Source: Cellvibrionales bacterium UBA4451 (lineage in GTDB: Bacteria > Pseudomonadota > Gammaproteobacteria > Pseudomonadales > Porticoccaceae). From it: a stretch of 64,000 nt of DNA. Where the stretch lies: contig DGPB01000009.1 of NCBI GenBank assembly GCA_002390285.1, positions 89,454-153,453 of the forward strand, given 5' to 3'. The notes below the pieces were generated by a model. It worked only from the letters and a program-made list of their open reading frames with translations, was not told the DNA's origin and did not search any database. Made by a program: the position numbers and the translations under genes. Shown in pieces: positions 33,837-50,123 of this stretch (position 1 is the stretch's first letter; the number at the start of each line of letters is the position of its first letter).

Positions 33837-35114
33837 ATGAGCAACAAGAAATTCCACCTCTCTGAAGAAGGCACAGACACTTCGATAGAGCTACCGGTTC
33901 TAAGCAGCACTCTTGGTCAAGATGTCATCGACATCGCCAGGGTCCCTGAAACAGGGTGCTTCACGTTTGATCCCGGTTTTGGTGCTACAGCCTCTTGTGA
34001 ATCAGCAATCACCTTCATTGATGGGGATAAAGGTGTTCTTTTACACCGTGGCTATCCCATTGAGCAGTTAGCAGCAAATTCTGATTTCCTGGAAACCTGC
34101 TACCTTCTTATTAATGGTGAACTGCCTTCAGATTCAGAGAAGGAAGCATTCGAACAGACCATAAAATCCCACAACAACGTAGAGAGTGCCGTAGAACAAT
34201 TTATGAGTGGCTTCAGTCAGGGCTCCCATCCTATGGCCATGCTTTGTGCTGTTGTTGCTGCTATGTCAGCGACTTACAACGACACTACAGACGTTTCTAA
34301 TGCGGATGACAGAATGCTCACTGTTAACCGACTGATTGCCAAGATGCCTATTTTGGCCGCCATGTGTCACAGACATTTCTCAGGCCTGCCCTATGTGTCG
34401 ACAAACAACGACCTTAGTTATGCTGAAAACTTCCTCAACATGATGTTTGGAACACCGGGTGCTAAGAGCACGGTCAGCCCTGTATTAACTAAAGCAATGG
34501 ATCTGATTTTCCTTCTCCATGCCGATCACGAACAAAATGCGTCCACGTCAACAGTTCGTCTATCAGGTTCTTCTGGCGCAAATCCATACGCCTGTATAGC
34601 GAGTGGAATCGCTGCACTTTGGGGGCCGGCACACGGCGGCGCGAACCAAGCTGTGCTCGAAATGCTAGAAGAAATAGGTGATGAGAAACACATTGATGAG
34701 TTTATTCTTCGCGCCAAGGATAAAGAAGACGGTTTCCGCCTCATGGGCTTTGGACACAGAGTTTACAAAAACTTTGACCCACGCGCTAAAGTGATGAAGG
34801 AAAGCTGTGATGAAGTCCTCGCTGAACTTGGCCTAGAACACGATCCACTGCTGAAAATTGCCAAGCGTCTAGAACAAATTGCACTGGAAGATGAGTACTT
34901 TGTTGAGAAAAAACTCTACCCAAATGTTGATTTCTATTCCGGCATTATCATGAAGGCAATCGGTATTTCTCCCGAAATGTTCACTGTTATCTTTGCCACA
35001 GGCCGCACCGTTGGCTGGATATCTCACTGGAATGAAATGCTGAGCAATCCATACCGAATTGGCCGCCCACGTCAGCGCTATACTGGTTATGCCCAGCGGG
35101 ACTATCCTGCCTAA
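33837..35114 (+). CDS. gltA: Type II citrate synthase
   Basis: [34 protein letters not shown]. Confidence 0.98.
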
Positions 35115-35135
35115 CATTCTGCATTATAAAGAATT

Positions 35136-35170
35136 AAAAAGGCCGCCCTGGTAACAGTGGCGGCGTTTTT
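35136..35170 (+). terminator. Rho-independent terminator after gltA
   Basis: GCCGCC-CTG-GTAA-CAG-T-GGCGGC followed by a T run. Confidence 0.8.
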
Positions 35171-35178
35171 ATTATGGA

Positions 35179-35263
35179 CTTTAACAATCTTATATCGACC
35201 AATGTTCAAATATCTATTGATCCGATGAATATTCCTTTTTCATTAGTGTTGCTCTGTTACGTG
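35179..35263 (-). mobile_element. Degenerate attC-like site after the distal Rap1a gene
   Basis: Minus strand: TAG-CACGTAAC...GTTAAAG. CACGTAAC is the exact complement of GTTACGTG preceding the same gene. Internal L-box pairing is poor. Confidence 0.4.
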
Positions 35264-35632
35264 CTACCTGCATGGATGCGGGAATGCGTCTAAGAATGCC
35301 TTCATTGTCAAAAAGACTTCTCGTTCATGCAATTCAGTAGGATTTTTCCTTAAATACTCCAGCACAATACTCATTGACTGTCCGTTTGTAATACCTCCTT
35401 TTGGGAAGCAAACTTTTAGTGAGCCATCATTTTCCATAACCTTCATAATACTGCTAACACCATGGACAAAGCCTACGCAAAAGCCAAAAGACATCGAATC
35501 ACCATCTTCGTCGGCATTTAAAAAACTTTCTGCTTCCGCACACTTTTTTAGTAGTTCATTGCCGTCGGCAAAACTTAAAGGTGAAAAGAACAGAACTATG
35601 GTTAGCATTATTATCTTAATTGTTGGCTGCAT
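35264..35632 (-). CDS. Rap1a/Tai-family immunity-like protein
   Basis: Signal peptide then DGNELLKKC...CVGFVHGV...VCFPKGGITNGQ...YLRKNPTELH...AFPHPC; four-Cys pattern; AAGGA RBS. Confidence 0.85.
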   Translation of the reverse strand: MQPTIKIIMLTIVLFFSPLSFADGNELLKKCAEAESFLNADEDGDSMSFGFCVGFVHGVSSIMKVMENDGSLKVCFPKGGITNGQSMSIVLEYLRKNPTELHEREVFLTMKAFLDAFPHPCR

Positions 35633-35646
35633 TAACTCATCCTTTT

Positions 35647-35741
35647 CACGTAACTGAGTGAATCACTTTAGCAGATGTTGATTACAGGCTGAATAAGCAA
35701 CTTGAAAATATCCAATCGGCTCAGTGAAAGGTTTATTAGGT
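35647..35741 (-). mobile_element. attC-like imperfect hairpin between the 54-aa ORF and the distal Rap1a gene
   Basis: Minus strand ACCTAAT-AAACC-TTTCACTG...AGTGATT-CACTCA-GTTACGT. Spacer and box lengths 5/8...7/6 as in attC. TCACT/AGTGA, AGC/GCT and GAT/ATC pairings; ~94 bp. Confidence 0.5.
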
Positions 35742-35742
35742 G

Positions 35743-35907
35743 CTACTCGCATGGGTAAGCATCTAGCTTTTGCTTCAAATAATTCAAGTCTCTGTCTGTA
35801 GCATTAACCTCATCCCAGATAGGGTCATCTTCGGCGAGTAATACCTCTTTGAGACACTCTAGCTTGCGTATTTCGGCCTCAATAGAGTCTCTTGTGGCTA
35901 CTTGCAT
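35743..35907 (-). CDS. Unannotated 54-aa acidic helical peptide
   Basis: Below ORF-track cut-off: MQVATRDSIEAEIRKLECLKEVLLAEDDPIWDEVNATDRDLNYLKQKLDAYPCE. GGAGG RBS 7 nt before ATG; start overlaps the end of the upstream Rap1a gene. Confidence 0.6.
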   Translation of the reverse strand: MQVATRDSIEAEIRKLECLKEVLLAEDDPIWDEVNATDRDLNYLKQKLDAYPCE

Positions 35908-36263
35908 GGGTACGCCTCCAGGAAAGCATCCATTATCAAATAGCCTTTGTATTCATGTAGTCGAAGAGGATTTTTCCTTAAATACGCTAGAACAATTCGT
36001 ACACTCTGCTCATTTGAAAGCCCGCCTTTTGGTGTGCAGATTTTAAATGGGCCATCCATTCTTGTCTGACTCATTCACACCCCGTCGACTATGCCAAGGC
36101 AAAAGGTACGTTTATGGACATCATCAGTTTTTTCGTTATTTTGCAATTTTTCTGATACTGCGCATTCTTCTAATAAGCTATTCCCATCGACGCCGGCATA
36201 ACTCGAAGGTGAGAAGAGTAGGAAGCCAGAAAGTAATACTATGACATGAATTATGGGGCGCAT
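35898..36263 (-). pseudogene. Second Rap1a/Tai-family gene interrupted by an in-frame TGA at 36075-36077
   Basis: N-part ...DGNSLLEEC...FCLGIVDGV* continues in frame as MSQTRMDGPFKICTPKGGLSNEQSVRIVLAYLRKNPLRLHEYKGYLIMDAFLEAYPCK*, collinear with 35264..35632. Confidence 0.85.
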
Positions 36264-36380
36264 TTGAATGTTCCTTTTCACCTATTAAATGCAACTTTAC
36301 CAGAAGGGAATTGATGCTATCAAGCGGAGTGATAATCAGGAAAATACCCTAGAAAGTGTCCCCAAAAATAATAATCCAAT

Positions 36381-36413
36381 AAAAAAGGCCAACTATTTAA
36401 GTTGACCTTTTTT
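36381..36413. terminator. Terminator downstream of tRNA-Ala
   Basis: AAAAAAGGCCAAC-TATTTAA-GTTGACCTTTTTT. Confidence 0.85.
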
Positions 36414-36445
36414 GCTGTATCCCTTGCGATGCAAGGGCTTGCGTT

Positions 36446-36521
36446 TGGTGGAGCCTAGCGGGATCGAACCGCTGACCTCAACACTGCCAGTGTTGCGCTC
36501 TCCCAGCTGAGCTAAGGCCCC
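36446..36521 (-). tRNA. tRNA-Ala (GGC)
   Basis: GGGGCCTTAGCTCAGCTGGGAGAGCGCAACACTGGCAGTGTTGAGGTCAGCGGTTCGATCCCGCTAGGCTCCACCA; 76 nt, anticodon GGC, encoded CCA. Confidence 0.98.
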
Positions 36522-36604
36522 AAATCTGTTGCTGATAACCTTATACAGGCTTTACTTACTCTCTATAAGCCCAGCTGTAACCCGCTGCACCCAAAGGGCA
36601 TAAA

Positions 36605-36616
36605 AGCTAAGGCCCC
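36605..36616 (-). repeat. Isolated copy of the first 12 nt of tRNA-Ala
   Basis: GGGGCCTTAGCT, identical to 36510-36521. Confidence 0.85.
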
Positions 36617-36630
36617 GAAAGAGGCTGCGC

Positions 36631-36659
36631 ATTTTAGGTATTGGCCCAATAAGAGTCAA
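36631..36659 (-). promoter_or_regulatory. Sigma70 stable-RNA promoter for tRNA-Ala
   Basis: TTGACT-N17-TAAAAT then GC-rich discriminator GCGCAGCC; -35 overlaps the gltX stop. Confidence 0.75.
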
Positions 36660-38170
36660 GCCTGTTCTTCGGGATGTTCAGCTCGGTTAGCGCAGATTAG
36701 CTGGTATTCTTTTTCCCATTTTTTCAGTTGTTTTTTAGACACCCCTCCAGCCGTCTCTAATGCATGTCTGACGCGCGCTCGGACTAAGTCTGGACCCAGA
36801 ATTTCCATCGCATCAAACAGCGGCGGCCCCGATGGAGAGCCTGTAACGGCCACAAACAATGGGAATAGAAAATCTTTAAGCTTTAAGTCTACCGACAAGG
36901 CTATTTGATTTAATTCTTGATACAACCCATCACGGGACCAATGACGCAGCCCATCGAGGCGCCAGACACTGTATTGAAGCACCCTACGCACCAGTTCATT
37001 ATCCAGCTTTTTATGTTCAAAACTGGCTTCACTCAGAGTTGGCATACCCGACAGCATGAAACCCAGCAAGGGTGCTATATCGGTAAATTTTTCGACACGC
37101 TCTTTAATAAGAGGAATCATTCGAGACAAGTTGTCACGATTAATGGCCCAGTCGGCAACACGGCTGGCAAATTCACTATCATCCAAATTTTCACGAATCC
37201 AACAACCATTGAGCCAATCCAGTTTTTCCGTATCAAAAACAGGTCCACCCAGGTGCACATTGTGGATATCAAAGTTTTCCAGCATTTCTTGAAGGGTGAA
37301 TTTCTCAGCCTCATTGGGCATTGACCACCCCATTCGTCCCAAATAGTTAATCACTGCTTCGGGGAGATAACCCATTTCACGGTAATAATTAATACTGGTC
37401 GGGTTCTTACGCTTGCTGAGCTTGCTCTTATCCGTATTTCTTAACAGCGGCATATGGCATAGCTGGGGCATTTCCCAGCCAAAATACTCATAAAGTAATT
37501 GATGCTTTGGTGCAGAATTGATCCACTCCTCACCCCGAATCACATGGGTGATTTCCATCAAATGGTCATCAACCACATTGGCCAAGTGGTAAGTAGGCAT
37601 ACCATCCCCTTTAAGCAAGACCTGCATATCAATTTGGGCCCAGGGTATCTCGATTTCACCCCTCAGCATGTCATTGAAGGTACAACTGCCCTCCTCCGGT
37701 ACTTTCATCCGGATAACATGGGGTACGCCATCCGCGAGTCGCTCCTGCACATCAGCTTGAGAAAGGTTCAGGCTACGGCCATCGTATTTGGGCGTTTCAC
37801 CTCGAGCCATCTGCTCCTTGCGCATGGTATCCAATTCACTTGGCGTGGCAAAACAATAGAATGCGTGGCCTTTTTCCACCAGCTTCATCACATGCTGATG
37901 ATAAATAGCCATGCGCTCACTTTGTCGATAAGGGCCGAATTTTCCGCCCACATCGGGTCCTTCGGACCAATTAAGACCGAGCCAGCGCAGTGAATCCAAA
38001 ATCATTTGTTCAGATTCACCGGTGCTTCGGGTTTGGTCCGTGTCTTCAATACGAAGAATGAACTCGCCACCCAAACTGCGAGCAAAACAAAGATTAAACA
38101 GTGCTACGTAGGCAGTACCTACGTGGGGATCACCAGTGGGTGATGGTGCAATACGGGTACGAACTGACAT
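36656..38170 (-). CDS. gltX: Glutamate--tRNA ligase
   Basis: [11 protein letters not shown] (HIGH), RIEDTD, KLSKR (KMSKS). Confidence 0.97.
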
Positions 38171-38250
38171 GGATAGTTATTTCCGTCAAGCTGAGAAAGT
38201 GAGAGGGTTAAATACATCAAATAATGGCCGATATTATACGCCGATCAATA

Positions 38251-40215
38251 CTATTCAACAGGCTTAGACTGGGGCTCACCTAGGAAATAACCTTGAGCTG
38301 CATCAACACCAAGTTCGGCAAGCTGGTTCCATTCTATCTCGCTTTCAACACCTTCCAACCAGAGTTGAACGTTGCGATTATGAGCAAGCTGAACCAGCGA
38401 TTTGATATAGAATTGATTATCAGGATTCTGATCCAGCTCACGAAGGAAACTACGATGCACTTTTAGGTGGTTCAGTGGCAAGCTGCTCAAATAACCGAAG
38501 GCTGAGGACCCTAGTCCAAAGCCATCAATCGCCATAGAAGCGCCACATTTATGTAATAGCTTATCGAGCCGTCGTATGGGCTTATCATCTAAGACTATAG
38601 CCTTTTCAGACACCTCAAACACGATATTACTAGCCAATTCACGTTGAGAGGTTAGGTAAGAATCTAGCCATTTAACAAAACCGTTTTCTTGTATTGAAAG
38701 CATCGACAAGTTAACGCATAACTTGCCAGAAAAGGTTTTTTCCCGGTTAGTAGTGGCCAGAGATTCAAGAATCAATCGATCGAGCTGAGGCATTAGGCCC
38801 AGCCGCTCCGCGATAGGAATCACTATCCCCGCCGTTAACAAATCATCACCATTAATAAAGCGTACAAACACTTCATGGGCAACGACAGTCTTATCAGGAA
38901 GGCTTAATACCGGCTGAAAATATAGGACTATAGAGTGATCCGAGATAGTCTGCTCTAAAAATGCCTGCCATTCCTGCAACGTGCGACCCAGAACGGGTGC
39001 TTCACCATCCCGGACGTCAGAGAGCTTCGCCCAACGGTTAGTACCCTGCAATTTGGCCTGGCGTAGGGCTAGATCGGCTTCACTCAGCATGTCAGCACCG
39101 CTAGTGACCTCAGAATGATAGGTATAGCCCATATTGAAGTGCAGTGGACATTGGTCATTGTTAAGCCAGCTAAGGCCCTGTACCGTCTCAAAAACGGCTC
39201 CAGCCAACTCCTCGCCCTCCTGAGGCGTAATATCGGGGATAAATACGGAGAACTCCTGCCCCTTCCTTCTGGCAACCAATGCTCGTGGATGTCGTAAAAC
39301 AGTACTATTCAGGCACTCACCAATGGTTTTAAGTAAGCGGTTACCTTCCGCCCGACCTGCATAATCATTGACGGAGGCAATATCGTGCATGGCGATAATG
39401 ATCAGCGCACCGGTATGTGTTCCGACTTCTTTGTCATCGACAAAACTATTCATACGATTATCGAAATCACTGCGGTTAGAAATCCCCGTGACCGCATCGC
39501 GAAATGATTGCTTCTGCAACTGTCCTATTGTCGCCAACTGTTCGTCAAAGATTTCTTTGAGATGCTGAGCCATTCGATTCATCGCCAAGACCACACGTCT
39601 CAGTTCACGGGTTTTAGGAATGTTCTCTTGTATAACAAAGCGTTTTTCATAGATATCGTTAGCTTGTCTTTCAACGCGAGTTAACGGCTCAAGTAACCAT
39701 TTCAGTGCGAGATAAGCCAGCAGACAAACCAATAAAGTAATAGCGGTAAACCAGCCTAGCTGCGTCGTTGTTACTTGCCAGAGCTTTACATAAGCCTGAC
39801 CGGGATGGCTGACAACGTTAAGAACACCCAGCTGAGACCAACCCGACGACACTTCCGCTTTTCCCTCTGGTGAGGGTAAAGGCATTAACGACACAAACCA
39901 ATCGGGAACTGTTTCTATGGATACAGGGAACTCTCGGTCAATCACAATATTTTGTTCAAGATCAGTAAAGAAAATACGTTGGTAATAACCGCTATCGGAA
40001 ACGGCATTGAACATAGTGTCCAATGTGGCAATATCTTTTTCTTGAGCAGCCTGCGTCATGGATAGGCCAAGAGATGTGGCTGTATCCTGCGCATGTACCT
40101 GCATTTGATCTTCGACCAACAGGCGATTGTTGTGGAGACTAACCAGCGTATTACCTGCATAGAGGCAGATAAACAAGATTACTACGGCGATAATCAACTG
40201 ACGAAACAGTGTCAC
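38251..40215 (-). CDS. lapD: LapD-like c-di-GMP receptor (periplasmic output, HAMP, degenerate GGDEF and EAL)
   Basis: MTLFRQL start, GWSQLG LapG-binding loop, KGQEF in place of GGDEF, EVF in place of EAL, DGFG. Confidence 0.88.
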   Translation of the reverse strand: MTLFRQLIIAVVILFICLYAGNTLVSLHNNRLLVEDQMQVHAQDTATSLGLSMTQAAQEKDIATLDTMFNAVSDSGYYQRIFFTDLEQNIVIDREFPVSIETVPDWFVSLMPLPSPEGKAEVSSGWSQLGVLNVVSHPGQAYVKLWQVTTTQLGWFTAITLLVCLLAYLALKWLLEPLTRVERQANDIYEKRFVIQENIPKTRELRRVVLAMNRMAQHLKEIFDEQLATIGQLQKQSFRDAVTGISNRSDFDNRMNSFVDDKEVGTHTGALIIIAMHDIASVNDYAGRAEGNRLLKTIGECLNSTVLRHPRALVARRKGQEFSVFIPDITPQEGEELAGAVFETVQGLSWLNNDQCPLHFNMGYTYHSEVTSGADMLSEADLALRQAKLQGTNRWAKLSDVRDGEAPVLGRTLQEWQAFLEQTISDHSIVLYFQPVLSLPDKTVVAHEVFVRFINGDDLLTAGIVIPIAERLGLMPQLDRLILESLATTNREKTFSGKLCVNLSMLSIQENGFVKWLDSYLTSQRELASNIVFEVSEKAIVLDDKPIRRLDKLLHKCGASMAIDGFGLGSSAFGYLSSLPLNHLKVHRSFLRELDQNPDNQFYIKSLVQLAHNRNVQLWLEGVESEIEWNQLAELGVDAAQGYFLGEPQSKPVE

Positions 40216-40393
40216 GCGGCCTTCCCTTTTTTATTTATTATCAACGAGTCTAATGCAATCCAGTTCACTTGCCAATTGAGTGCTACATCACACCTATAGC
40301 CATTACCGGATAGCTATCCGCTATGGGGTCTATGGTAAGATAAAATAATAAAAAAACGCATGAAAACTGTCGCAAAAATAGGATTATTTTCAA

Positions 40394-41065
40394 ATGAATT
40401 CAATGGGGAGGTCAGCACTTAAAACCAGCTTTGCCTGGCTTCCCATTGCAATCATTGGTCTATTCTCGGCAGCCATTGCTCAACATCAGGGCGTCAGTGA
40501 AAAACTACTCTCAAAGATTAGTGATAAATATGGCCCTACTGCCGAAACCCGGATTCGCCACTGGGAAGGGTTAATTCACCAATATCACAGCAGCGACGAT
40601 CGAAAAAAACTCACTATCGTCAACGATTTTTTTAATGGTGCTCGTTTTGTCAGTGATGCCATCCTATGGAATAAGAACGATTACTGGGCAACACCGTTAG
40701 AGTTTCTTGCCAATGATGCGGGTGACTGCGAGGACTTCTCCATTGCAAAATACTTCACCCTCAAAGAAATGGGGCTGGATACCGCTAAGTTGCGGATTAC
40801 CTATGTAAAAGCAACCACGCTCAATCAGGCCCACATGGTATTAGCCTATTACGCTAGCCCCAATGCAGAGCCGCTTATTCTGGACAACCTTAACAAGCTG
40901 ATAAAACCAGCCAGTCAGCGACAAGACCTACGGCCTGTGTATAGCTTTAACGCAGATAACCTTCGGTTAAACCGAACGAGAAATGAACAACTGAAGGCAG
41001 GCAAGCCTAGTCAGTTAAATTTATGGCGGGATTTAAACTCGAGAATGCGGCGGGAGTTGCTCTAA
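40394..41065 (+). CDS. lapG: LapG-like periplasmic transglutaminase-like cysteine protease
   Basis: Signal peptide; DYWATPLEFL, GDCEDFSIAKY (Cys), AHMVL (His), LDN (Asp). Confidence 0.92.
   Translation: MNSMGRSALKTSFAWLPIAIIGLFSAAIAQHQGVSEKLLSKISDKYGPTAETRIRHWEGLIHQYHSSDDRKKLTIVNDFFNGARFVSDAILWNKNDYWATPLEFLANDAGDCEDFSIAKYFTLKEMGLDTAKLRITYVKATTLNQAHMVLAYYASPNAEPLILDNLNKLIKPASQRQDLRPVYSFNADNLRLNRTRNEQLKAGKPSQLNLWRDLNSRMRRELL
40621..40740 (+). repeat. 120-bp direct repeat, copy 1 (partner at 42070-42189)
   Basis: 116/120 identical by manual comparison; offset 1449 bp. Confidence 0.95.
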
Positions 41066-41080
41066 GGCTTTTGTTCTTAT

Positions 41081-41114
41081 AAAAAAAGCCCCGACACCAC
41101 TGTCGGGGCTTTTT
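41081..41114. terminator. Bidirectional terminator
   Basis: AAAAAAAGCCCCGACA-CCAC-TGTCGGGGCTTTTT. Confidence 0.9.
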
Positions 41115-41133
41115 AGTTTTAACGGTCTAAAGG

Positions 41134-42069
41134 TTAATCAACCACCAATGTGTTGGTAGACAAGAGGCTTTCAATAATATCAACAGACTGGAGGGTACCA
41201 CCTTCAGTCAGATCCACGCCCTCTATCACGATAGATTGCAAGGCTGAACCAGCACTTGGTTCAGCGAATATTATCGTGTCAGCTCCGGCATTGATAGATT
41301 GGACTAACAAGAAGGTGCCATCCAATGCTTGAGCTAACGACAAGTCAGATGAATGATCAAGAGCTTCTTCACCCACTAACAAGTCGGACAAATCGAGCAC
41401 ATCACCTTCGCTTACATTGTAACTACCACCAGACTGATTGAAGTCAGTAATAGTATCTACAGCACCGACACCTTCATCGCCAAAGTTCCACTGGAAAACA
41501 TCTGCACCAGTACCACCTGTTAGAGTGTCTGAGCCAGTACCACCTGAGATAACATCATCTTCAGCTGTTCCAACTATAGACAATCTCAAAAGTATCCGTC
41601 GCAATATCACCATCCGTATCAGCTACACCCGCTGTTACTTCAAGGCTTTGATCCACACCAGTTAATTCTTCTGTGGTAGTAATCGATGTCACCTTATAGT
41701 CACTTCCAGCATCAGCAGTTAGCTCAACAGTATCAAAGTTCCATGAAGTGTTGCCTTCGAATAATGCTTGAAGGCTAGGGTCACCTACAAAGTCAACGTC
41801 TATTCCGTCAACAGCTATCACTCCATCCTGAGTAATGTTAATAATCACGGATGAATTAATGTAATCAACGCCACTATTGTTTGTGATTGTTAATGTACCT
41901 AACTTAACAAGTGTCTCGTCAATACCATCAGCACCAACTAAGTCTTGCCAGTCATACAAAGTAATCAAGGCTACTTCACCAACACCAACACCAACACCAA
42001 TTGCAAAGGCCCTAGTATTAACCGTTAGAGCTGAGTCATCACTGTTCAAGAAACCAGATGCTTTAATAA
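41134..42069 (-). pseudogene. 5'-truncated, frameshifted C-terminus of an RTX/T1SS adhesin
   Basis: vWA-tail-like 'RAFAIGVG', RTX nonapeptides 'GGTGSDTLTGGTGADVF', T1SS target 'DTITDFN...GDVLDLSDLL'; frameshift near 41575-41580; no start, cut at the lapG repeat. Confidence 0.85.
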
Positions 42070-42514
42070 CAACGATTTTTTTAATGGTGCTCGTTTCGTC
42101 AGTGATGCCAACCTATGGAATAAGAACGATTACTGGGGAACACCGTTAGAGTTTCTTGCCAATGATGCGGGCGACTGCGAGGACTTCTCTATTGCCAAAT
42201 ATTTCACCCTGAAAAAAATGGGACTAGATACCGCTAAATTGCGTATTCACTATGTCAAAGCGACAACGCTCAACCAAGCACATATGGTGCTTGCCTATTA
42301 CTCCACGCCTAATGCCGAACCACCGATTCTCGATAATCTTAACAAGCTGATAAAACCGGCCAGTCAACGACCTGATCTACGCCCCGTGTACAGTTTTAAT
42401 GCCGACAATTTATGGTTGGCGAAAACACGAACTAAACATGTCAAAGCGGGCAAGCCAGGTCAGTTAAATTTATGGCGAGATTTGACGAACAGGATGCAGC
42501 AAGAATTATTGTAA
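42070..42514 (+). pseudogene. lapG: 5'-truncated second lapG copy
   Basis: In frame from 42071 (NDFFNGARF...GDCEDF...AHMVL...LDN...QELL*); lacks start codon and signal peptide; collinear with 40621-41065. Confidence 0.9.
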
Positions 42515-42515
42515 T

Positions 42516-42551
42516 AAAAAAAGCCAGCCCAATTAATGGGCTGGCTTTTTT
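42516..42551. terminator. Bidirectional terminator
   Basis: AAAAAAAGCCAGCCC-AATTAAT-GGGCTGGCTTTTTT. Confidence 0.9.
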
Positions 42552-42566
42552 ATTAGCTACCTTCAA

Positions 42567-44858
42567 TTAAGTAATATTTACAACCACATTTCCATCTGCA
42601 AGTACTGTTGCTAGAACAAAATCACCGTTACCGGTATCTACGAAGTCATATTGGTCCGTTGAACCAACTTTCTGCCACACTGTATCAGCATAAGCATCGC
42701 CATCAACAAGGTTCACCACATCATCAGCATCATCACCAATAATATTAATCTCAATGTCCCCACCAGTACCCAGATCAATTACATCCTGAGCAGAAAGGAA
42801 GATTGTATTATCTTCACCAGTCCCCTTTCCTGAGATATCAATGGTATCTACGTAACCAAATAAATCCTGCCCACCATTGATCGACAGTTCAGAGAAATCT
42901 AACGTAAAGTCATCAGTACTAGATGCAGTATCAAGTGTCAGTATTCCACCAAGAACTTCAAAACCAATGGGCTCGCTAACAGTAAAGTCGGTAGCGTCAC
43001 TACCAAAATCAGGACCGATAACCACGTTGAAAATATAGCCATCAGGGTTTGTGTTACCACGAGTATCCCCTGTTTCTAACTTTGCATTACCTTCGTAAAT
43101 TAAAAGTTCGTTCGCATTGGAATCAGTAATGGACAAATCCGTTAAAATAACGGGATCACCAGTAACATGCTCAATGGTGACGGTGTAATTTCCTGGTTTA
43201 AAGAACACATCATCATCAAACTTTAATCTACTACCTTCCTGGCCTTGCACTTCAGTAGGATCTACCACACCCGTTGAATTAGAACCTTCGTTAGAAGCGA
43301 CCGTGATACGAACTTCTTGTATACCGACATTAGTATTTGTAATCATTGCAGAACTGGCCGGAATGCCGCTGACAACAGTTGATGCGCCGTCAGTGATGTC
43401 AAGAGCTTCGTAGGTTCCACCGGTAGCAGAGAGAATAGTAACGTCATAACTGACATCAGCTTCACCTGGAGCCGCAACCTCTAATGTGCCCTCAAATTCA
43501 CCGGGGTTAATCGTGATGTTACCCAACGTGACGTTATTTTCATCCTGAATAGTAATAACCAATGGCGTAGACACCGGTGTATTGACGACGGTTGCCGTGT
43601 AGGTAATTAAACCACCTACATCTACAGATGCTGTTGCTGTTAATGTCACGGTAGAAGCATCATTGTCATCAACAATGGTCGCATCCGCGGTGGATGTATG
43701 GGTCAGATCTTCGTAGTTACCACCACTCCAGGTGAGTACATCGGCCGTGGTTTCATCTGGACCTTGGTCGTACCGGTCATCAGCACGGTTCGGTACCGCC
43801 ACATCGGTATAGCCCGGTCCAGCGGCAGTGATAATGACGTTACCCAGATCGGTCGTTGTCAGTGTTAGATCAGTCTCGGGCGGATTGTCCACGCTGTAGC
43901 GGAAGAACGCGGTGGTACCTTCCACGATAGTGCTCGGGTCAGCAATCACGTCACCAGCTGCATCTACTACGGTAATGGTCACAACAGAGGCATCAATGGT
44001 GTCGACAATCGTTACACTTGTGGTGTCAGAAATATTCAAGGTGTCATAGCCACCACCAGAAGAACTCTGGATACCTACATTAAATGTTTCACCATCTTTG
44101 TAGACATCATCACCTTGTGCAGGTTGTGGTGAGGAGGTACCGCTATTTTGGCCTTCCAGAATAGTAATTTGAACACCGTTAGTCAGGGTAAGGATTAAAT
44201 CACTTCCCACAGGGGCCTCATCTACCTGAACGGTATAAACGATTTCTTCATTCTCAGGGATTGCATCTGCATTTACAGTAACGAGACCTGAGGCTCCAAG
44301 GTCAACCCTACGCGAAACTTCCTGATTTACATCAGTATCTGCCGTAGGGTCGAGCAAGGGTGGCGGTATGTAGTCAGGATCAATACCCGCAGTAGGCGTT
44401 ACTTCCGATCCAATTAACGAAAATAATAATCCACCGCCAAGTTCACCACCACCAGCACCACTTTCACCCGCTGCAGTAGCTTCTTGATCTTCAGAAATAT
44501 CTTCACCCGCACTCAGGGCTGCCAATAGATCCTGAAATTCAGGGTTTTCTGTCTCGTCAAAGCCTTCTAGCAACGTCAGTTGGTCAAAATTCCCCTGGCT
44601 AAGCTGAAAGGCTTCACCACTAGATAACTGGCGAACAGAGCCGTCAGCAAATGCTAGCGCAATACTAGAGCCGTCGGTTACTTGAAGAATATCTCCCTCA
44701 AAAATAGGGTCGCCAGGATTAAGTTCACGAATGGAGCCATCGGCAGAAATGACGACAACTGTCGCACCTTCGGTCGATCGTACAAAGCCTATGGCCTTGG
44801 CACCATCAGTTAACTCAACAGCATTTTCATCTTTCACCTTGACGTCCATTTGTACCAC
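42567..44858 (-). CDS. Retention-module-containing T1SS adhesin (short LapA-like)
   Basis: N-terminal retention module ('IRELNPGDPIFEGD', 'LLAALSAGED...EATAAG'), about three acidic Ig-like repeats, acidic C-terminal secretion region; start may be ATG 44849. Confidence 0.88.
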   Translation of the reverse strand: MVQMDVKVKDENAVELTDGAKAIGFVRSTEGATVVVISADGSIRELNPGDPIFEGDILQVTDGSSIALAFADGSVRQLSSGEAFQLSQGNFDQLTLLEGFDETENPEFQDLLAALSAGEDISEDQEATAAGESGAGGGELGGGLLFSLIGSEVTPTAGIDPDYIPPPLLDPTADTDVNQEVSRRVDLGASGLVTVNADAIPENEEIVYTVQVDEAPVGSDLILTLTNGVQITILEGQNSGTSSPQPAQGDDVYKDGETFNVGIQSSSGGGYDTLNISDTTSVTIVDTIDASVVTITVVDAAGDVIADPSTIVEGTTAFFRYSVDNPPETDLTLTTTDLGNVIITAAGPGYTDVAVPNRADDRYDQGPDETTADVLTWSGGNYEDLTHTSTADATIVDDNDASTVTLTATASVDVGGLITYTATVVNTPVSTPLVITIQDENNVTLGNITINPGEFEGTLEVAAPGEADVSYDVTILSATGGTYEALDITDGASTVVSGIPASSAMITNTNVGIQEVRITVASNEGSNSTGVVDPTEVQGQEGSRLKFDDDVFFKPGNYTVTIEHVTGDPVILTDLSITDSNANELLIYEGNAKLETGDTRGNTNPDGYIFNVVIGPDFGSDATDFTVSEPIGFEVLGGILTLDTASSTDDFTLDFSELSINGGQDLFGYVDTIDISGKGTGEDNTIFLSAQDVIDLGTGGDIEINIIGDDADDVVNLVDGDAYADTVWQKVGSTDQYDFVDTGNGDFVLATVLADGNVVVNIT

Positions 44859-45040
44859 CCTATGAGGTTCGTTTTGTTCGTATAACGGCCTTATTTTCAG
44901 TATACAAAAGCTTTTTATGGGCTATCTCAACTGAAAACAGTATTTGTAATGTGTTTTATATCACAATAATAAAAGAACTAGCTTGCCGTTTAGGGGCTAC
45001 TAATTACCGTTCAGGCTTTTTTTACGCATCATGGCCGCTT

Positions 45041-46348
45041 TTAGAGTTCAACACCTACCGTAAAGAGCAGTTCGCCCATTGCATGGAACAAACGGTACTC
45101 GTTAAGTAACGTGTCATGGTTGGCTCTTACAAGAGACTCTCTTGCGGCAATCATTTCATTTTCGGTGTTAAGAAGATCTAGCAACGTTCTTCGGCCAAGA
45201 TCAAACTGCTGCACGTAAGCATCTCGTGTTAACTCAGCATCTCTTGCGTAATCCTCAAGTGCCGGCAGTTGATCGCGAATTGCCTCGTAGGCAACCCAAG
45301 ACAGGCGTGTTTCTTGTTCAACCTGACGATGCGTGTTATTACGAATTTCTTTAGATTTTTCTAGCAAGTGGGCGAACTGTTGCGTGCGCGCTTCATCAGA
45401 GCGGCCGCGGAACAGATTGTAGCGCATGCGCAGCATAACCTTAAGATCATCTACCTGCCCTTCAACACCATCGATATTGTCATTGAGGTCACGTTCAACT
45501 TCAAAATGAAAGTGTGGATAGAAGGCACTTTTAGTTTGCTCATAACGGTAGTTCACAGCATCTATATCAGCACCTGATGATTTCAGCAGAGGATGGCTTT
45601 CTACCGCTTTTGCTACCGCATCATCAACTGAAGCTGGCAAATATTTTCGGTAAGACCCAGGGTTAACCAACTCGCCTTGCGCAGGAAAACGGCCAACGAC
45701 ACGCTGGAAGTTTGTTTTAGCATCAATCACATTTGCATTCTGGTTAATTGCATTGGTTTTAGCTAAAGCATAACGGCTAGAAATCTGGTCCAGATCGGCA
45801 CGGCTACCTACACCTGAATCAAAACGTTTTTTCATTTTTTCATAGATATCTTTGTGCGTTGCCAGGGTTTGATTCGTTAGTACATGAATATCTTCCTGTT
45901 TCATCACATCAAAGTAGCTTCGCGCTACTTTCAGAGCAACGTCCTCTCCCACGGATGAGGCCCGAAAAGTGGAACTTTCAAGCCGTGATTGCTGGTTTCT
46001 GTACTCATTCGTAGTACTGAACCCATCAAACACGAGCTGGCGAAGGTTTATCTGAGCCTCACTGCGATCCAGTTCGTTACGCTCCCCATTTACTTTTTGT
46101 TCCGACGTAGGGTCGCGCTCCTGAAAACCAAAACCGGCTAACAAATCGACCGTAGGGTAGTAAGCACCCAATGCTTCACGAACTTGGCGTTCACGTGCAT
46201 CCATCTCCCGCAACTCGGTAAGAACTTCTGGGTTTGATTGAATCGTTTGGGCAATAGCGTCTCGCAAATCGAGAGTTTCGGCCTGAAGCTGAAATGAAAT
46301 TCCTGCAATACTAGCCAGCGCCGTGATTAATAAGTTACGTTGCAACAC
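45041..46348 (-). CDS. TolC-family outer membrane protein of T1SS (LapE-like)
   Basis: Signal peptide, 'YYPTVDL', 'QLVFDGF', 'QQFDLGRRTLLDLLNTENE'. Confidence 0.92.
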   Translation of the reverse strand: MLQRNLLITALASIAGISFQLQAETLDLRDAIAQTIQSNPEVLTELREMDARERQVREALGAYYPTVDLLAGFGFQERDPTSEQKVNGERNELDRSEAQINLRQLVFDGFSTTNEYRNQQSRLESSTFRASSVGEDVALKVARSYFDVMKQEDIHVLTNQTLATHKDIYEKMKKRFDSGVGSRADLDQISSRYALAKTNAINQNANVIDAKTNFQRVVGRFPAQGELVNPGSYRKYLPASVDDAVAKAVESHPLLKSSGADIDAVNYRYEQTKSAFYPHFHFEVERDLNDNIDGVEGQVDDLKVMLRMRYNLFRGRSDEARTQQFAHLLEKSKEIRNNTHRQVEQETRLSWVAYEAIRDQLPALEDYARDAELTRDAYVQQFDLGRRTLLDLLNTENEMIAARESLVRANHDTLLNEYRLFHAMGELLFTVGVEL

Positions 46349-46596
46349 AATTACTCTCCCTTTTATTACACATCAATTTGTAAATTCTATACACCACAGT
46401 AGTAAAAAATCTTAATAAAGTATGCATCAAAGACTTTAAATTTATAGGCTCTCATAAATCATAATCCTTAGTCCCACAAAAGAATCTAAGCACTCTATGG
46501 AAAAGGCTAGTGTTGAGACGCTATTAATTACAAGTTAGCTCGACTTCTCAAAGAGATTATAACGTGCTCACTATGACAGGGTAAATACAGTACTAA

Positions 46597-47961
46597 TCAA
46601 CGCTCTCGGAAGGCCAACTCTTTGGTTTTAAGAATAGGTTTGAGTATGTAATCAAGTATTGTCTTCTGCCCTGTTAATATATCCACTTGAACAATCATAC
46701 CCGGAATAATGGGTAATGGCTCGTCTTCTCGACCAAGGTGGTTATCTTCTGTTTTGAGTCTGACCTGATAATAGCTAACGCCTTCTTCATCGACGATGGT
46801 ATCAGGGCTAATATGGGTCACTTTGGCCGACAAGCTCCCATGTATTGAGAAATCATAAGCGGTGAATTTTACGGTGGCATGCTGTTCAGGGTGAATAAAG
46901 GCAATATCAGCCGGTCGCACACGAGCATCTACCAACAAGGAATCGTCGAATGGCACAATTTCCACTAAGTCCATACCCGGCTGAATAATACCGCCGATGG
47001 TATTCACTTTGAGTTGCTTCACGGTCCCCTTCATCGGTGAGCGAACAATGGTTCGGTCTACTCTATCCTCCAATGCCTCATTACTTTGAAGAATACGCCC
47101 TAATTCAGACATAATTTCATTCAATTCTCCCCTCGACTCACTGGCAAAGCTCTGGGTGTGAGTTTCTACATTTTTTATCACTTCTTTATATGCCGACTCA
47201 AGTTGAGGGATGGCCAGTTTCGCTTGACCCAGCTCTCCTTTTAAATCATTTAGCTGTCGTTCTAACCTAAGCAACTCAACATGTGACACAGCCCCTTCTG
47301 CAACAAGAGGTCGCGTGATATTCAGTTCCCTTTTTAGCAGGTCATAACTATCAGAAAGACTCTGCTTATTAACCTTAACCGAAGATAACTCTTGATATTT
47401 TTGAGATGCTTTCTGATTTAATATTTCTAACTCGGAGAGATGCTCTTCTTTGCGTGACGCATATAAAGCCCTCTCACTAAGAACCAACGAGTGGTTTCTC
47501 ACGCCATTAAGCTTGGACAACTCTATATCAAAGTCACTACTGTTGGCCTCTGCACGCAGTCTCGCCGCTTTAACAATGAGTTGCTCAGCCTGAAGAGACC
47601 GCTCTCTATAGGTAGAGGCAAATATGGTATCGTCAATTTGTAGTAGTGGTTGCCCGCGGTCAACAATATCTCCGACTGACACCATCAGCTCTGCCAGTAT
47701 TCCGCCTTCGAGATTTTGAACCACTTGTAAATTGCTAGACGGTACAATTTTTCCCTCTCCTCGAGTAAATTCATCCACTACAGCAAGACTGGCCCATGTC
47801 ATCATAACCACTATAAAGGCCACAATGACCCACAGCAGTGATTGAGCTATCAAAGGTGATTGCTTTAATACCGCCTCGGAGGAATAAGACATGTACTTCA
47901 GATCGGTAGAAGGAGTCTCATTAAAATGCTTACGCACTTTGTCCAACTGTTTATCCAGCAT
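46597..47961 (-). CDS. HlyD-family T1SS membrane fusion protein (LapC-like)
   Basis: VVQNLEGGIL, VRSPMKGTVK, PIIPGM, TILDYILKP. Confidence 0.93.
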   Translation of the reverse strand: MLDKQLDKVRKHFNETPSTDLKYMSYSSEAVLKQSPLIAQSLLWVIVAFIVVMMTWASLAVVDEFTRGEGKIVPSSNLQVVQNLEGGILAELMVSVGDIVDRGQPLLQIDDTIFASTYRERSLQAEQLIVKAARLRAEANSSDFDIELSKLNGVRNHSLVLSERALYASRKEEHLSELEILNQKASQKYQELSSVKVNKQSLSDSYDLLKRELNITRPLVAEGAVSHVELLRLERQLNDLKGELGQAKLAIPQLESAYKEVIKNVETHTQSFASESRGELNEIMSELGRILQSNEALEDRVDRTIVRSPMKGTVKQLKVNTIGGIIQPGMDLVEIVPFDDSLLVDARVRPADIAFIHPEQHATVKFTAYDFSIHGSLSAKVTHISPDTIVDEEGVSYYQVRLKTEDNHLGREDEPLPIIPGMIVQVDILTGQKTILDYILKPILKTKELAFRER

Positions 47962-50123
47962 TAGGATCTACCCCTCACGGTGCCAGTCTTCAAAGCTTCC
48001 AATACCTCTGCTTTAGGCCCATCAGCGACAATTGTCCCTTTATCCATCACAATTAGCCGATCAACTAAATCCAGCATGTTCATCTTATGAGTGATCAATA
48101 ATAGAGTGCAGTCAGTAAATTCAGTCCTGATTTGTTGACGCATTCTTTCTTCTGTACCCTGATCCATTGCGGCAGTCGGCTCATCCATTAACAATACCCG
48201 AGGGCTTCTGAGGAAAACACGAGATAATGAAATTGCACTACGCTGCCCACCCGATAAAGTCTCACCCCGTTCACCTACAGGCATTTCAAAACCAAGTGGA
48301 TGGCTATTCACTAACTCAAGGATTCCTGCCTTTGTTGCTGCCGCAACTACCTCTTCATCGGAAACTGCATTGAGACCAAAGGTAATATTTTCGCGCACCG
48401 TGCCATAAAATAATTTTGCATCCTGGGCTACATACCCCAGGTTTTTGCGGAGGTCGGCAGGATCTAACTGCTGGGCATCAAAACCATCAAGTAAAACTGA
48501 ACCACTTGACGGATCGTAAAGACGGATTAACATTTTGGCCAAGGTTGATTTTCCCGAACCTATTCGACCAATGATACCGACCTTTTCACCAGGATTGATG
48601 GTTGTATTGATATTATCCAGTGCTGGCATAGGTTGTTCAGGGTAGCTAAAGCACACCTGTTTAAGTTGGATTTTCCCCTCATATACCGGGCGATGTAGGT
48701 ATCGCTTTTCTGGGTCTCGCTCGACAGGAAGTTCCATCACTTCGTTTAGGGATTTCAGTGTGGCTTCAGCATGGTCATAACTGACGAGTAGACTGGCCAC
48801 CTGGCTCATTGGCGCTAATGCTCGACCGTTGAGTATGACGCAGGCAATAAGACCACCTAATGTCAGGCTCTGATCAGAAATTAGGTATACGCCCGTTACA
48901 ACAATGGCCACCATGGCGATTTGCTGAAGAAACTGCACTGTCTGCAGCGCGCCATTAGAGGTAATCCGGGACTGTAGACTCCACTGTGAGACGTAGCCAA
49001 CTGATTGCTCCCAGGCTCTTTGTACTTGACTTTCAGCGCCCATCGTTTTAATGGTTTCAATACCAACCAAACTTTCAATCAAGGTGGCATTTTTTTTGGC
49101 ACTGCCACGCATCACATTTTCAATCGTTGGTCGAAGCTTTTGCTGTGCTCTAAAAGCGATATAGAGTCCCAAAGGAAAAATAACAATTGGCACCACTACG
49201 AGCCAACTTCCAAGGTAAAAGATAAACACTAAAAATAGGACGACGAAAGGCAGGTCAATTAATGTGAGCATCGTGGACGAAGTGACGAAATTTCGAAGCA
49301 TATCGAAATCATGGAGTCGTGAAGCAAACGCACCTGTGGAGTTTGGTCGGGCCACCATTTTTAGGTTCAGAACTTTCTCAAACAACTGGGCTGATAACAC
49401 AACATCCGTTCGTTTAGCTGCAAGCTCTACCAGATAAGCTCGTAATAATTTCAGTGCCAAATCGAATAAATAAACAATGACCACACCAATGGCTAGGGCC
49501 CAAAGTGTCTCAATGGCATTATTGGGCACTACTCTGTCGTACACATTCATGACAAACAAGGGTTGCGCCAAAACAAACAAATTAATCAGGAAAGAAGCGA
49601 TCAACACATCGCGATAAATTTTCCATGAGCTCTTCAATACACCCCAGAACCAATGGTCATGACCATTGTGATATATCTTTGGTGTGCGTGAATCAAACTG
49701 CTGCATTGGCCTCATATAAAAAACATGGCCACTGTAAATTTCTAGCAATTGTTGATAGTCAACTTGCACCGGCTGGTGTGTTTCAGGGTCAATGAGTACA
49801 GCAAGCCCTAGGTCAGTATGGATGTCTGACAGCACCACCCCCTCACCATTTTTAAGTATGAGAAGAACCGGCAATACTTCCGAAGGAATTTTATCGAGAT
49901 CCCTGGAAAGTAAAATGGATGCAAGGCCCGCTCTGTTTGCGGCACGATTAAACAAAGAGGGGGTTAGCTTTCCATCCTCTAGTGGAAGGCCAGAGGAAAT
50001 GGATGCTATTGAGGTAGGCCTCCCTTCCAGGCTAGCCGCCAGCAATAGACACTCCATCAATCCATGGGATGCAATCGAACTGACGCCCCCCTGAGCTTCG
50101 ACTTCTTTTTCAGGCTTATTCAT
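47961..50123 (-). CDS. T1SS permease/ATPase (LapB-like)
   Basis: C39-like N-terminus, HWFW, YDRVVPN, GRIGSGKST Walker A, LSGGQ, DEPT. Confidence 0.95.
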   Translation of the reverse strand: MNKPEKEVEAQGGVSSIASHGLMECLLLAASLEGRPTSIASISSGLPLEDGKLTPSLFNRAANRAGLASILLSRDLDKIPSEVLPVLLILKNGEGVVLSDIHTDLGLAVLIDPETHQPVQVDYQQLLEIYSGHVFYMRPMQQFDSRTPKIYHNGHDHWFWGVLKSSWKIYRDVLIASFLINLFVLAQPLFVMNVYDRVVPNNAIETLWALAIGVVIVYLFDLALKLLRAYLVELAAKRTDVVLSAQLFEKVLNLKMVARPNSTGAFASRLHDFDMLRNFVTSSTMLTLIDLPFVVLFLVFIFYLGSWLVVVPIVIFPLGLYIAFRAQQKLRPTIENVMRGSAKKNATLIESLVGIETIKTMGAESQVQRAWEQSVGYVSQWSLQSRITSNGALQTVQFLQQIAMVAIVVTGVYLISDQSLTLGGLIACVILNGRALAPMSQVASLLVSYDHAEATLKSLNEVMELPVERDPEKRYLHRPVYEGKIQLKQVCFSYPEQPMPALDNINTTINPGEKVGIIGRIGSGKSTLAKMLIRLYDPSSGSVLLDGFDAQQLDPADLRKNLGYVAQDAKLFYGTVRENITFGLNAVSDEEVVAAATKAGILELVNSHPLGFEMPVGERGETLSGGQRSAISLSRVFLRSPRVLLMDEPTAAMDQGTEERMRQQIRTEFTDCTLLLITHKMNMLDLVDRLIVMDKGTIVADGPKAEVLEALKTGTVRGRS

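Follow-up and report, generated by a model that had tools for sequence, protein, structure and literature searches.

How did a Lap-type adhesin locus of the genus Porticoccus come to hold two copies of the protease gene lapG, one complete and one headless, with a dead adhesin fragment between them, and does this arrangement still have a function? The locus lies in a 64,000-nucleotide stretch of DNA (the window) from Cellvibrionales bacterium UBA4451 (assembly GCA_002390285.1, contig DGPB01000009.1, positions 89,454 to 153,453). The Lap biofilm-release system of Pseudomonas fluorescens Pf0-1 comprises the receptor LapD, the protease LapG, the adhesin LapA and the type I secretion system (T1SS) LapEBC. 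Our analyses indicate that the extra 1449-bp unit of the window is probably a fixed, non-functional scar, which was left when the outer part of the Lap adhesin was replaced in a Porticoccus lineage. The crossovers fall in two conserved anchors that flank the adhesin body, one in the part of lapG that encodes the catalytic core and the other where the retention module ends.

A repeat scan recovered a two-copy direct repeat starting at 40621 and 42070 with a spacing of 1449 bp, and 40621-41065 aligned with 42070-42514 over 445 bp without a gap. The homology starts exactly at 40621/42070, and the sequences upstream of these positions are unrelated between the copies. In the first 120 bp, termed X, the copies are identical at 116 of 120 positions (mismatches at offsets 27, 41, 68 and 102), while 25 mismatches were counted in the 120 bp that follow; beyond X, the copies agree at 80% of positions over 40741-40920 and at 68% over 40921-41065. 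The switch in identity was located between 40735 and 40747 (corresponding to 42184-42196), just after the Cys codon of the GDCEDF motif (40727-40729 and 42176-42178). These results agree with an earlier sequence-only reading of the locus, in which the two stretches had been described as collinear with the same 116/120 match, followed by about 26 differences in the next ~120 bp and a switch right after the catalytic-Cys motif. The order that it proposed, N-X-C′, a dead adhesin, X-C and an open adhesin reading frame, is likewise as described.

The uneven divergence along the repeat is unlikely to be a matter of chance (max-chi-square permutation test, p = 1e-4). Third-codon-position differences between the copies amounted to 2/40 in X versus 57/109 in the part after X, termed C in the second copy and C′ in the first (Fisher p = 3e-8). 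We considered whether X is merely the most constrained part of lapG. Pairs of lapG_A (the complete copy) and its orthologues ruled this out, with third-position divergences in X and C of 0.47 and 0.51 for locus L036, 0.47 and 0.47 for L040 and 0.60 and 0.46 for G015, and with a total X identity of 72-79% to same-genus orthologues. As orthologues show as much third-position divergence in X as in C, the near-identity of the two X copies does not result from purifying selection. In maximum-likelihood trees, X of the second copy grouped with the window's clade and C of the second copy grouped with L040 and L036 (bootstrap 100). Checks of the kind proposed in the sequence-only reading, namely identity along the duplicate and separate phylogenies of X and C, reveal uneven divergence and conflicting trees. 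A simple tandem duplication with even divergence does not match the 97%, 80% and 68% identity along the repeat or the disagreement between the X and C trees, and a plain tandem duplication of the lapG 3′ part plus adhesin tail was rejected because the C-termini of the dead and current adhesins are unrelated.

The complete copy, lapG_A (40394..41065, plus strand, 223 aa), comprises the segments N (40394-40620), X (40621-40740) and C′ (40741-41065). It matched Pfam PF06035 with 51.5 bits (cut-off 27), and its best-scoring NCBIfam model was LapG NF045674 with 221.8 bits, below the equivalog cut-off of 320; lapG_A is therefore a LapG-like orthologue by context rather than by NF045674. The PDB entries 4u65 and 4fgo were matched, and the E value was 6.8e-50 for 4u65_E, which was deposited as 'Putative cystine protease' and which we take to be LapG. 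When aligned to the 4u65 chain, lapG_A shows a triad of C112 (GDCEDF), H147 (QAHMV) and D164 (LILDN), and its N-terminus is hydrophobic, so that both the triad and an N-terminal export signal are present. Its identity to the sister lineage represented by locus L037 is 96% in N, 97% in X, 99% in C1 and 90% in C2. Because C1 matches at ~99% in this sister lineage, in which lapG is single-copy, lapG_A including C′ is native. Codon 191 (40964-40966) encodes Arg, at a position that is Trp in 112/113 homologues and Tyr in P. fluorescens LapG; the Trp is kept in a minority variant of the same population (P0059, 2 contigs).

The second copy, lapG_B (42070..42514, plus strand), is 5′-truncated and covers codons 77-223. 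Although it matched PF06035 with 43.2 bits (cut-off 27) and the triad codons are present, it is without the first 76 codons and the signal-peptide region, and it has no in-frame ATG, GTG or TTG before the ATG at 42218, which is downstream of the Cys codon at 42176-42178. It thus fails as a gene, and because it has neither a start codon before the Cys codon nor a signal peptide, lapG_B cannot yield a protease. It also carries two private changes, A99G (42137-42139) and L161P (42323-42325), at positions where Ala is found in 112/113 homologues and where Pro is never found in 113, respectively.

Within lapG_B, the first part and the remainder have different affinities. X_B (42070-~42185) is of the native type: X_B, X_A and X of L037 differ pairwise at 4/120 positions, and X_B has the states 40648C and 40662A in common with L037/L043 but not with X_A. 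X_B is therefore an old native-type copy rather than the product of a recent conversion, and recent gene conversion from lapG_A is disfavoured by these two states. The C part of lapG_B (~42196-42514) is of a foreign type. Its C1 (from ~42190) is identical to L040, a Porticoccus metagenome-assembled genome, at 176/180 positions and to L036 at 175/180, with 88-90% identity in C2 and lower identity beyond, while L036 and L040 are otherwise only ~80% identical to the window where flanking DNA was compared. An integration footprint or gene conversion had been suggested for this repeat; the footprint of recombination stands, but the near-identity of the X copies is better explained by shared native ancestry than by recent conversion.

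Comparison with relatives reveals which of the neighbouring sequences are native. Seven same-genus genomes have the synteny gltX-lapD-lapG-one adhesin-tolC-hlyD-ABC, and their adhesins have a C-terminus like the dead fragment and an N-terminus like that of the current adhesin. In L037, a Tara scaffold of 946 kb, identity to the window is 98.2% over 34001-41056 and, local dips in and around intergenic DNA aside, mostly 94-100% from ~44350 on; L037 has a single A-type lapG without a duplicate and a different adhesin between these flanks. Because L037 matches the flanks and differs between them, lapG_A with its C′ segment is native, as are the T1SS genes and the adhesin end that carries the retention module, and the variable segment extends from 41057 to ~44330. 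L042, a 99% lineage, has the same frameshifted dead fragment, on a contig that ends 69 bp before the junction. L043 and L044, whose flanks match those of L037 at 99%, have a third kind of adhesin tail and have the post-lapG terminator in common with the window. L037 and L043/L044 are 99.1% identical over 8.6 kb of the left flank, yet differ in their adhesin C-termini and in the terminators after lapG, which shows that adhesins turn over within a species-level cluster. We also considered C′ plus the dead adhesin as the foreign insert, as is suggested by L036, in which the C type is found in a full-length gene, and rejected it because L037, L042 and L043 show lapG_A including C′ to be native.

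The dead adhesin remnant (41134..42069, minus strand) corresponds to the 3′ part, ~312 codons, of an RTX-type LapA-like adhesin, as judged from its translations, PF00353 and TIGR03661 (45.1 bits; cut-off 17.6). It appears as two overlapping minus-strand open reading frames (ORFs; 41134-42049), which are one frame split by a single frameshift near 41575-41590, and the frame is open up to 42069. These last 936 bp code for RTX nonapeptides as well as for a T1SS C-terminal target domain. At the amino acid level the C-terminus is 41-67% identical to those of the single adhesins in the same-genus genomes, and no other copy of the remnant is found in the window's genome. Given that the C-termini of the seven same-genus adhesins resemble it, the dead fragment is the usual adhesin tail type of Porticoccus. 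L033, L034 and L042 share its frameshift. Between lapG_A and the remnant lies a hairpin terminator common to both (A-tract, stem and U-tract; 41083..41114, plus strand; fold -23.2 kcal/mol, z = -8.1), the sequence of which is common to lineage L043 and absent from L037. A second hairpin terminator (42517..42551, plus strand; fold -24.7 kcal/mol, z = -5.7) follows lapG_B and the current adhesin, so that each lapG copy ends in its own strong terminator, and the two terminators differ from each other. In the comparison between the window and L042 over 36543-42000, lapD and lapG differ by 1.5% (15 non-synonymous to 14 synonymous differences in lapD, 6 to 4 in lapG), and only 2 differences were found in the ~1000 bp of 40995-42000, which includes the last 71 bp of lapG, the spacer and most of the dead fragment. 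This low-difference stretch may point to a shared tract of recent recombination that begins near the 3′ end of lapG.

The current adhesin is a 763-aa ORF (42567..44858, minus strand; NF033682, PF20579), for which the database versions start at the ATG at 44849 and have 760 aa. The retention module was matched at residues 23-158 by NF033682 with 74.8 bits (cut-off 50), and it contains the TAAG di-alanine LapG site at aa 125-128 (44466-44477); the body consists of LapA-domain repeats (PF20579). Identity to L037 jumps from ~0.4 to 0.97 at 44320-44360, and 44160-44320 is 85-95% identical to L036, which places the right breakpoint at ~44325-44340, just past the retention module and the TAAG site. 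The part from the retention module to ~aa 174 (~44330) is native, and 42567-~44330, comprising the body and the non-RTX C-terminus, was imported. This C-terminus has conserved counterparts in L036 (69% aa) and P0016 (46%) and is unrelated to that of the dead remnant; no donor for the body closer than these two was found. Together with the C half of lapG_B, the imported body and C-terminus form a single foreign tract of ~2.1 kb (~42185-44330) from a Porticoccus lineage of the L036/L040 type, and the present adhesin is a chimera. Neither TIGR03661 nor any RTX model matched the current adhesin, including Pfam at E <= 10 on the last 235 aa. The sole retention-module adhesin of this genome (C-terminus at 42567-43000) is thus without a recognisable RTX/T1SS C-terminal domain, while its only Lap-type exporter is native.

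The copy number of a 111-aa LapA-domain unit varies among near-identical assemblies, which give adhesins of 760, 871 and 982 aa (window 43641-44012; L033, L034), and some assemblies give only a 471-aa C-terminal adhesin call. The short adhesin of the window may therefore represent a collapsed repeat, and its size as a 'miniature adhesin' is uncertain.

The sequence-only reading had proposed the arrival of a foreign lapG-plus-adhesin module and a linked exchange of protease and adhesin tails. The lapG 3′ half and the adhesin body did come together, in the ~2.1-kb tract, but what is foreign is C together with the current adhesin's body and C-terminus rather than C′ and the dead adhesin. The linkage between the two is physical, through their convergent 3′ ends. 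The functional partners, LapG and the TAAG-containing retention module, are at opposite ends and are both native, and the adhesin beside this same C-type lapG is RTX-type in L040 but 763-type in L036.

If the unit still had a function, it could be as a two-state locus, in which the loss of 1449 bp through RecA-type recombination at X exchanges the catalytic C-half of LapG (LRLNRTRNEQ to LWLAKTRTKH), with lapG_B serving as a silent cassette. The X copies lie in direct orientation and share unbroken identical stretches of 27, 26 and 33 bp, and the claim that their recombination would give a full-length N-X-C lapG holds on paper, the product being an in-frame LapG of 223 aa; moreover, the expressed lapG_A has the odd R191 while lapG_B keeps the conserved Trp. 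X is, however, only 120 bp long at 97% identity, no inverted repeats are found in 38000-46000, and no recombinase is among the called genes ~7-10 kb either side of the unit. When exact matches were looked up in a collection of ~15 billion proteins, none of the 3 possible recombinant N-X-C LapG proteins was recorded, as opposed to the 98-aa ORF of the lapG_B remnant on 60 contigs and lapG_A, in two variants, on 52 and 17 (~70 in all). No homologue of lapG_A falls between 96% and 87% identity, and no A-type sequence carries B-type residues in C. With A99G and L161P at conserved positions of lapG_B added to these, a two-state locus, as the sequence-only reading had raised, is unsupported, and we regard it as very unlikely. 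DNA pattern scans of metagenome contigs gave 0 matches for the deletion allele, but the positive control, the real junction between the dead adhesin and X, also gave 0, so that these scans are uninformative and are not evidence. It is equally improbable that rare recombination at X deletes the unit or converts lapG_A, restoring W191 beside the imported adhesin, in molecules below assembly detection. If this were true, the silent cassette would provide a low-frequency heritable change in the tightness of adhesin retention. An assembly chimera of two strains, one with lapG(C′) plus an RTX adhesin and the other with lapG(C) plus a 763-type adhesin, could be envisaged because the window's genome is a 20-contig draft and adhesin repeats collapse in some assemblies. 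At 42069|42070, however, adhesin-internal sequence is joined to lapG-internal sequence, and because the joined sequences share no k-mer, this junction must exist in reads. The same structure also occurs in L033 and L034, from two ENA metagenome assemblies made independently and with other contig names, where both lapG copies and both translations of the dead ORFs are 100% identical to those of the window, and the remnant ORF is on 60 contigs of up to 396 kb, which makes a chimera extremely improbable.

As for how a non-functional scar arose, the route that we tentatively favour, while rating it at somewhat less than an even chance, starts with duplication. A neutral 1449-bp tandem duplication, comprising lapG from nt 228 to the stop codon plus the 3′ 936 bp of the adhesin, would have been created through the illegitimate junction 42069|42070, after which a foreign module would have homologously replaced the adhesin-proximal copy. 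Replacement of C and the tail would have removed all homology but X, stabilising the duplicate against collapse; under this route, which takes two ordinary events, only X is still similar because C and the tail were replaced. Alternatively, a donor fragment starting inside lapG could have entered in one step by homology-facilitated illegitimate recombination, anchored in the retention module and joined within the RTX adhesin at 42069|42070, with lapG_A later converting the first ~115 bp of the truncated copy. Such a route fits the arbitrary junction without shared sequence, the homologous right crossover and the high-identity tract flush with the end of homology, but it needs conversion between ~79% identical partners over only 445 bp. 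Given that X_B keeps two L037/L043 states absent from X_A, any conversion would be as old as the split from those lineages; the number of events equals that of the duplication-first route and the second step is less likely, so that we consider the one-step route rather unlikely. Less likely still is a three-step route, in which a larger tandem duplication of the lapG 3′ part and the whole adhesin was followed by replacement of the distal copy and a deletion from the first adhesin copy into the partial lapG. It finds a parallel in the L036 scaffold, in which a full lapG, an adhesin, a lapG starting from aa 58 and an adhesin follow one another with copies 99.85% identical, but it requires one extra event, the L036 scaffold is insecure (a 100-N gap and 55-bp k-mer overlaps in a repeat-rich gene) and the L036 junction is at a different lapG position.

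Several observations weigh against the explanation of the unit as a fixed scar of adhesin replacement. No intermediate lineage was found, neither one with a perfect 1449-bp duplication nor one with an intact RTX adhesin that has this exact 3′ end. The imported adhesin body is only ~76% identical to L036, compared with 97-98% for lapG C1, so that the tract is itself patchy, and the donor was not found. At the left crossover, the runs of identity between native and donor sequences are only ~11-17 bp, a poor substrate for RecA-type exchange. The absence of the deletion allele is that from assembled contigs and called proteins only, and the 98-aa ORF and the 159-aa RTX ORF could in principle be expressed.

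In addition to lapG_A and the adhesin, the window contains the complete set of Lap-type genes, consisting of gltX (36656-38170, minus strand), lapD, lapG, the adhesin and tolC-hlyD-ABC. The gene lapD (38251..40215, minus strand) encodes a 654-aa c-di-GMP receptor with LapD_MoxY_N, GGDEF and EAL domains (Pfam PF16448, PF00990 and PF00563), which adjoins lapG; its best NCBIfam match is LapD NF045673 at 454 bits, which does not reach the equivalog cut-off of 1020, and its amino acid identity to that of L037 is 97%. A dedicated exporter is encoded by tolC (45041-46348, minus strand; TIGR01844, 303 bits, cut-off 225), the membrane fusion protein gene hlyD (46597-47961, minus strand; TIGR01843, 393 bits, cut-off 209) and an LssB-type ABC exporter gene (47961-50123, minus strand; TIGR03375, 936.8 bits, cut-off 693), so that ABC, membrane fusion and outer-membrane components of a Lap system are all represented. 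These type I secretion genes (45041-50123) are mostly 94-100% identical to L037, with dips in or near intergenic stretches (44700-45000 and 45800-46600). The called genes ~7-10 kb either side of the unit are sdh, gltA, Rap1a, gltX, lapD, the T1SS genes, dus and tal. The window's genome (2.07 Mb, 20 contigs) has one lapD, one such T1SS and one retention-module adhesin, and the working system consists of lapD, lapG_A, the chimeric adhesin and the T1SS. A third full-length lapG-like gene (53-57% aa) is located at G000:C18:36871-37479 (locus L030 9833-10564, minus strand); its neighbours are glmS/glmU, an rpiR-family regulator gene and uvrD, and no lapD, adhesin or T1SS is nearby. In sister genera, a second lapG-like gene (50-59% aa) is found directly 3′ of lapG as a tandem full-length pair, and we infer that it is the same paralogue as the G000:C18 gene.

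In a comparison of 202 genomes of the family, an adjacent full and partial lapG was found in only one species representative besides G158, namely the genome of the window. In G158, which belongs to another genus, a frameshifted-looking lapG-like gene (L048, G158:C22, 7792-9880) is followed 760 bp on by a 3′ lapG fragment (aa ~154-222), in which a 128-bp patch matches the first copy at 90.6% identity, and after that by the tail of an RTX adhesin. The Porticoccus scaffold L036 (ERZ23488419 scaffold_1903, 6062 bp) has the order lapD, full lapG, adhesin, lapG from aa 58 and adhesin, and its copies are 99.85% identical over 1975 bp; despite the 100-N gap and the 55-bp overlaps, it may represent an independent tandem duplication at the same locus. 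The apparent lapG partials of G059, from another genus, were rejected as such, since they are two contig ends (L046/L047; C54 and C43) with a 141-bp exact overlap over the conserved X region where the assembly breaks in lapG, which would fit either strain-level branching there or a plain assembler break. Short LapG-like database proteins (164-186 aa) were also rejected as truncated copies; they start at an internal Met and were read by eye as alternative start calls. The literature on LapG, the retention module and recombination yielded nothing on partial lapG copies.

The locus resembles the Lap system of P. fluorescens in having a lapD with LapD_MoxY_N, GGDEF and EAL domains, a Peptidase_C93 lapG with a C-H-D triad, a retention module with TAAG and a TolC/HlyD/LssB-type ABC exporter. 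It differs in the extra headless lapG and dead adhesin tail between lapG and the adhesin, in a short adhesin (760-982 aa) without a recognisable RTX/T1SS C-terminal domain and in a LapG and a LapD that are below the NCBIfam equivalog cut-offs. Large RTX proteins are known for mosaic evolution by homologous exchange of internal modules between conserved flanks, an example being the MARTX effector repertoires of Vibrio. As in these mosaics, a variable middle is swapped between lineages with crossovers in conserved flanks, and 99% identical flanks enclose different cargo (L037 versus L043); unlike in MARTX, one anchor is the neighbouring gene lapG, and the untidy exchange left a duplicate and a remnant.

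Homology-facilitated illegitimate recombination occurs in naturally transformable bacteria such as Acinetobacter and Streptococcus pneumoniae. The combination of one homologous crossover (retention module) and one homology-free junction (42069|42070) is similar to it, but the resident X was duplicated rather than deleted and X_B is of the native type, which fits the duplication-first route better. In silent-cassette antigenic variation, for which Neisseria pilE/pilS is the familiar case, a promoterless 5′-truncated copy is also found near the expressed gene in the same orientation. The window, by contrast, has a single such copy, which is altered at conserved positions, and no conversion products were observed among ~70 assemblies; LapG is periplasmic rather than surface-exposed, so that there is no obvious selective reason for its variation.

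The 1449-bp unit is thus a pseudogene scar in a known kind of system, and its value lies in offering a dated record of Lap adhesin diversification. What is exchanged, even among Porticoccus lineages with only ~80% identity, is the variable part, comprising the adhesin's repeats and secretion end, with the lapG catalytic core and the retention module as the conserved crossover points, and lineages that are 98-99% identical in the flanks (the window, L037 and L043) carry different adhesins. LapG and the TAAG-bearing retention module, which must recognise each other, stay native, and the native LssB-type exporter now serves an adhesin whose C-terminus has lost every recognisable RTX/T1SS signature. 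Given the two further partial lapG copies in L036 and G158, untidy cassette replacement of this kind may be common in the family.

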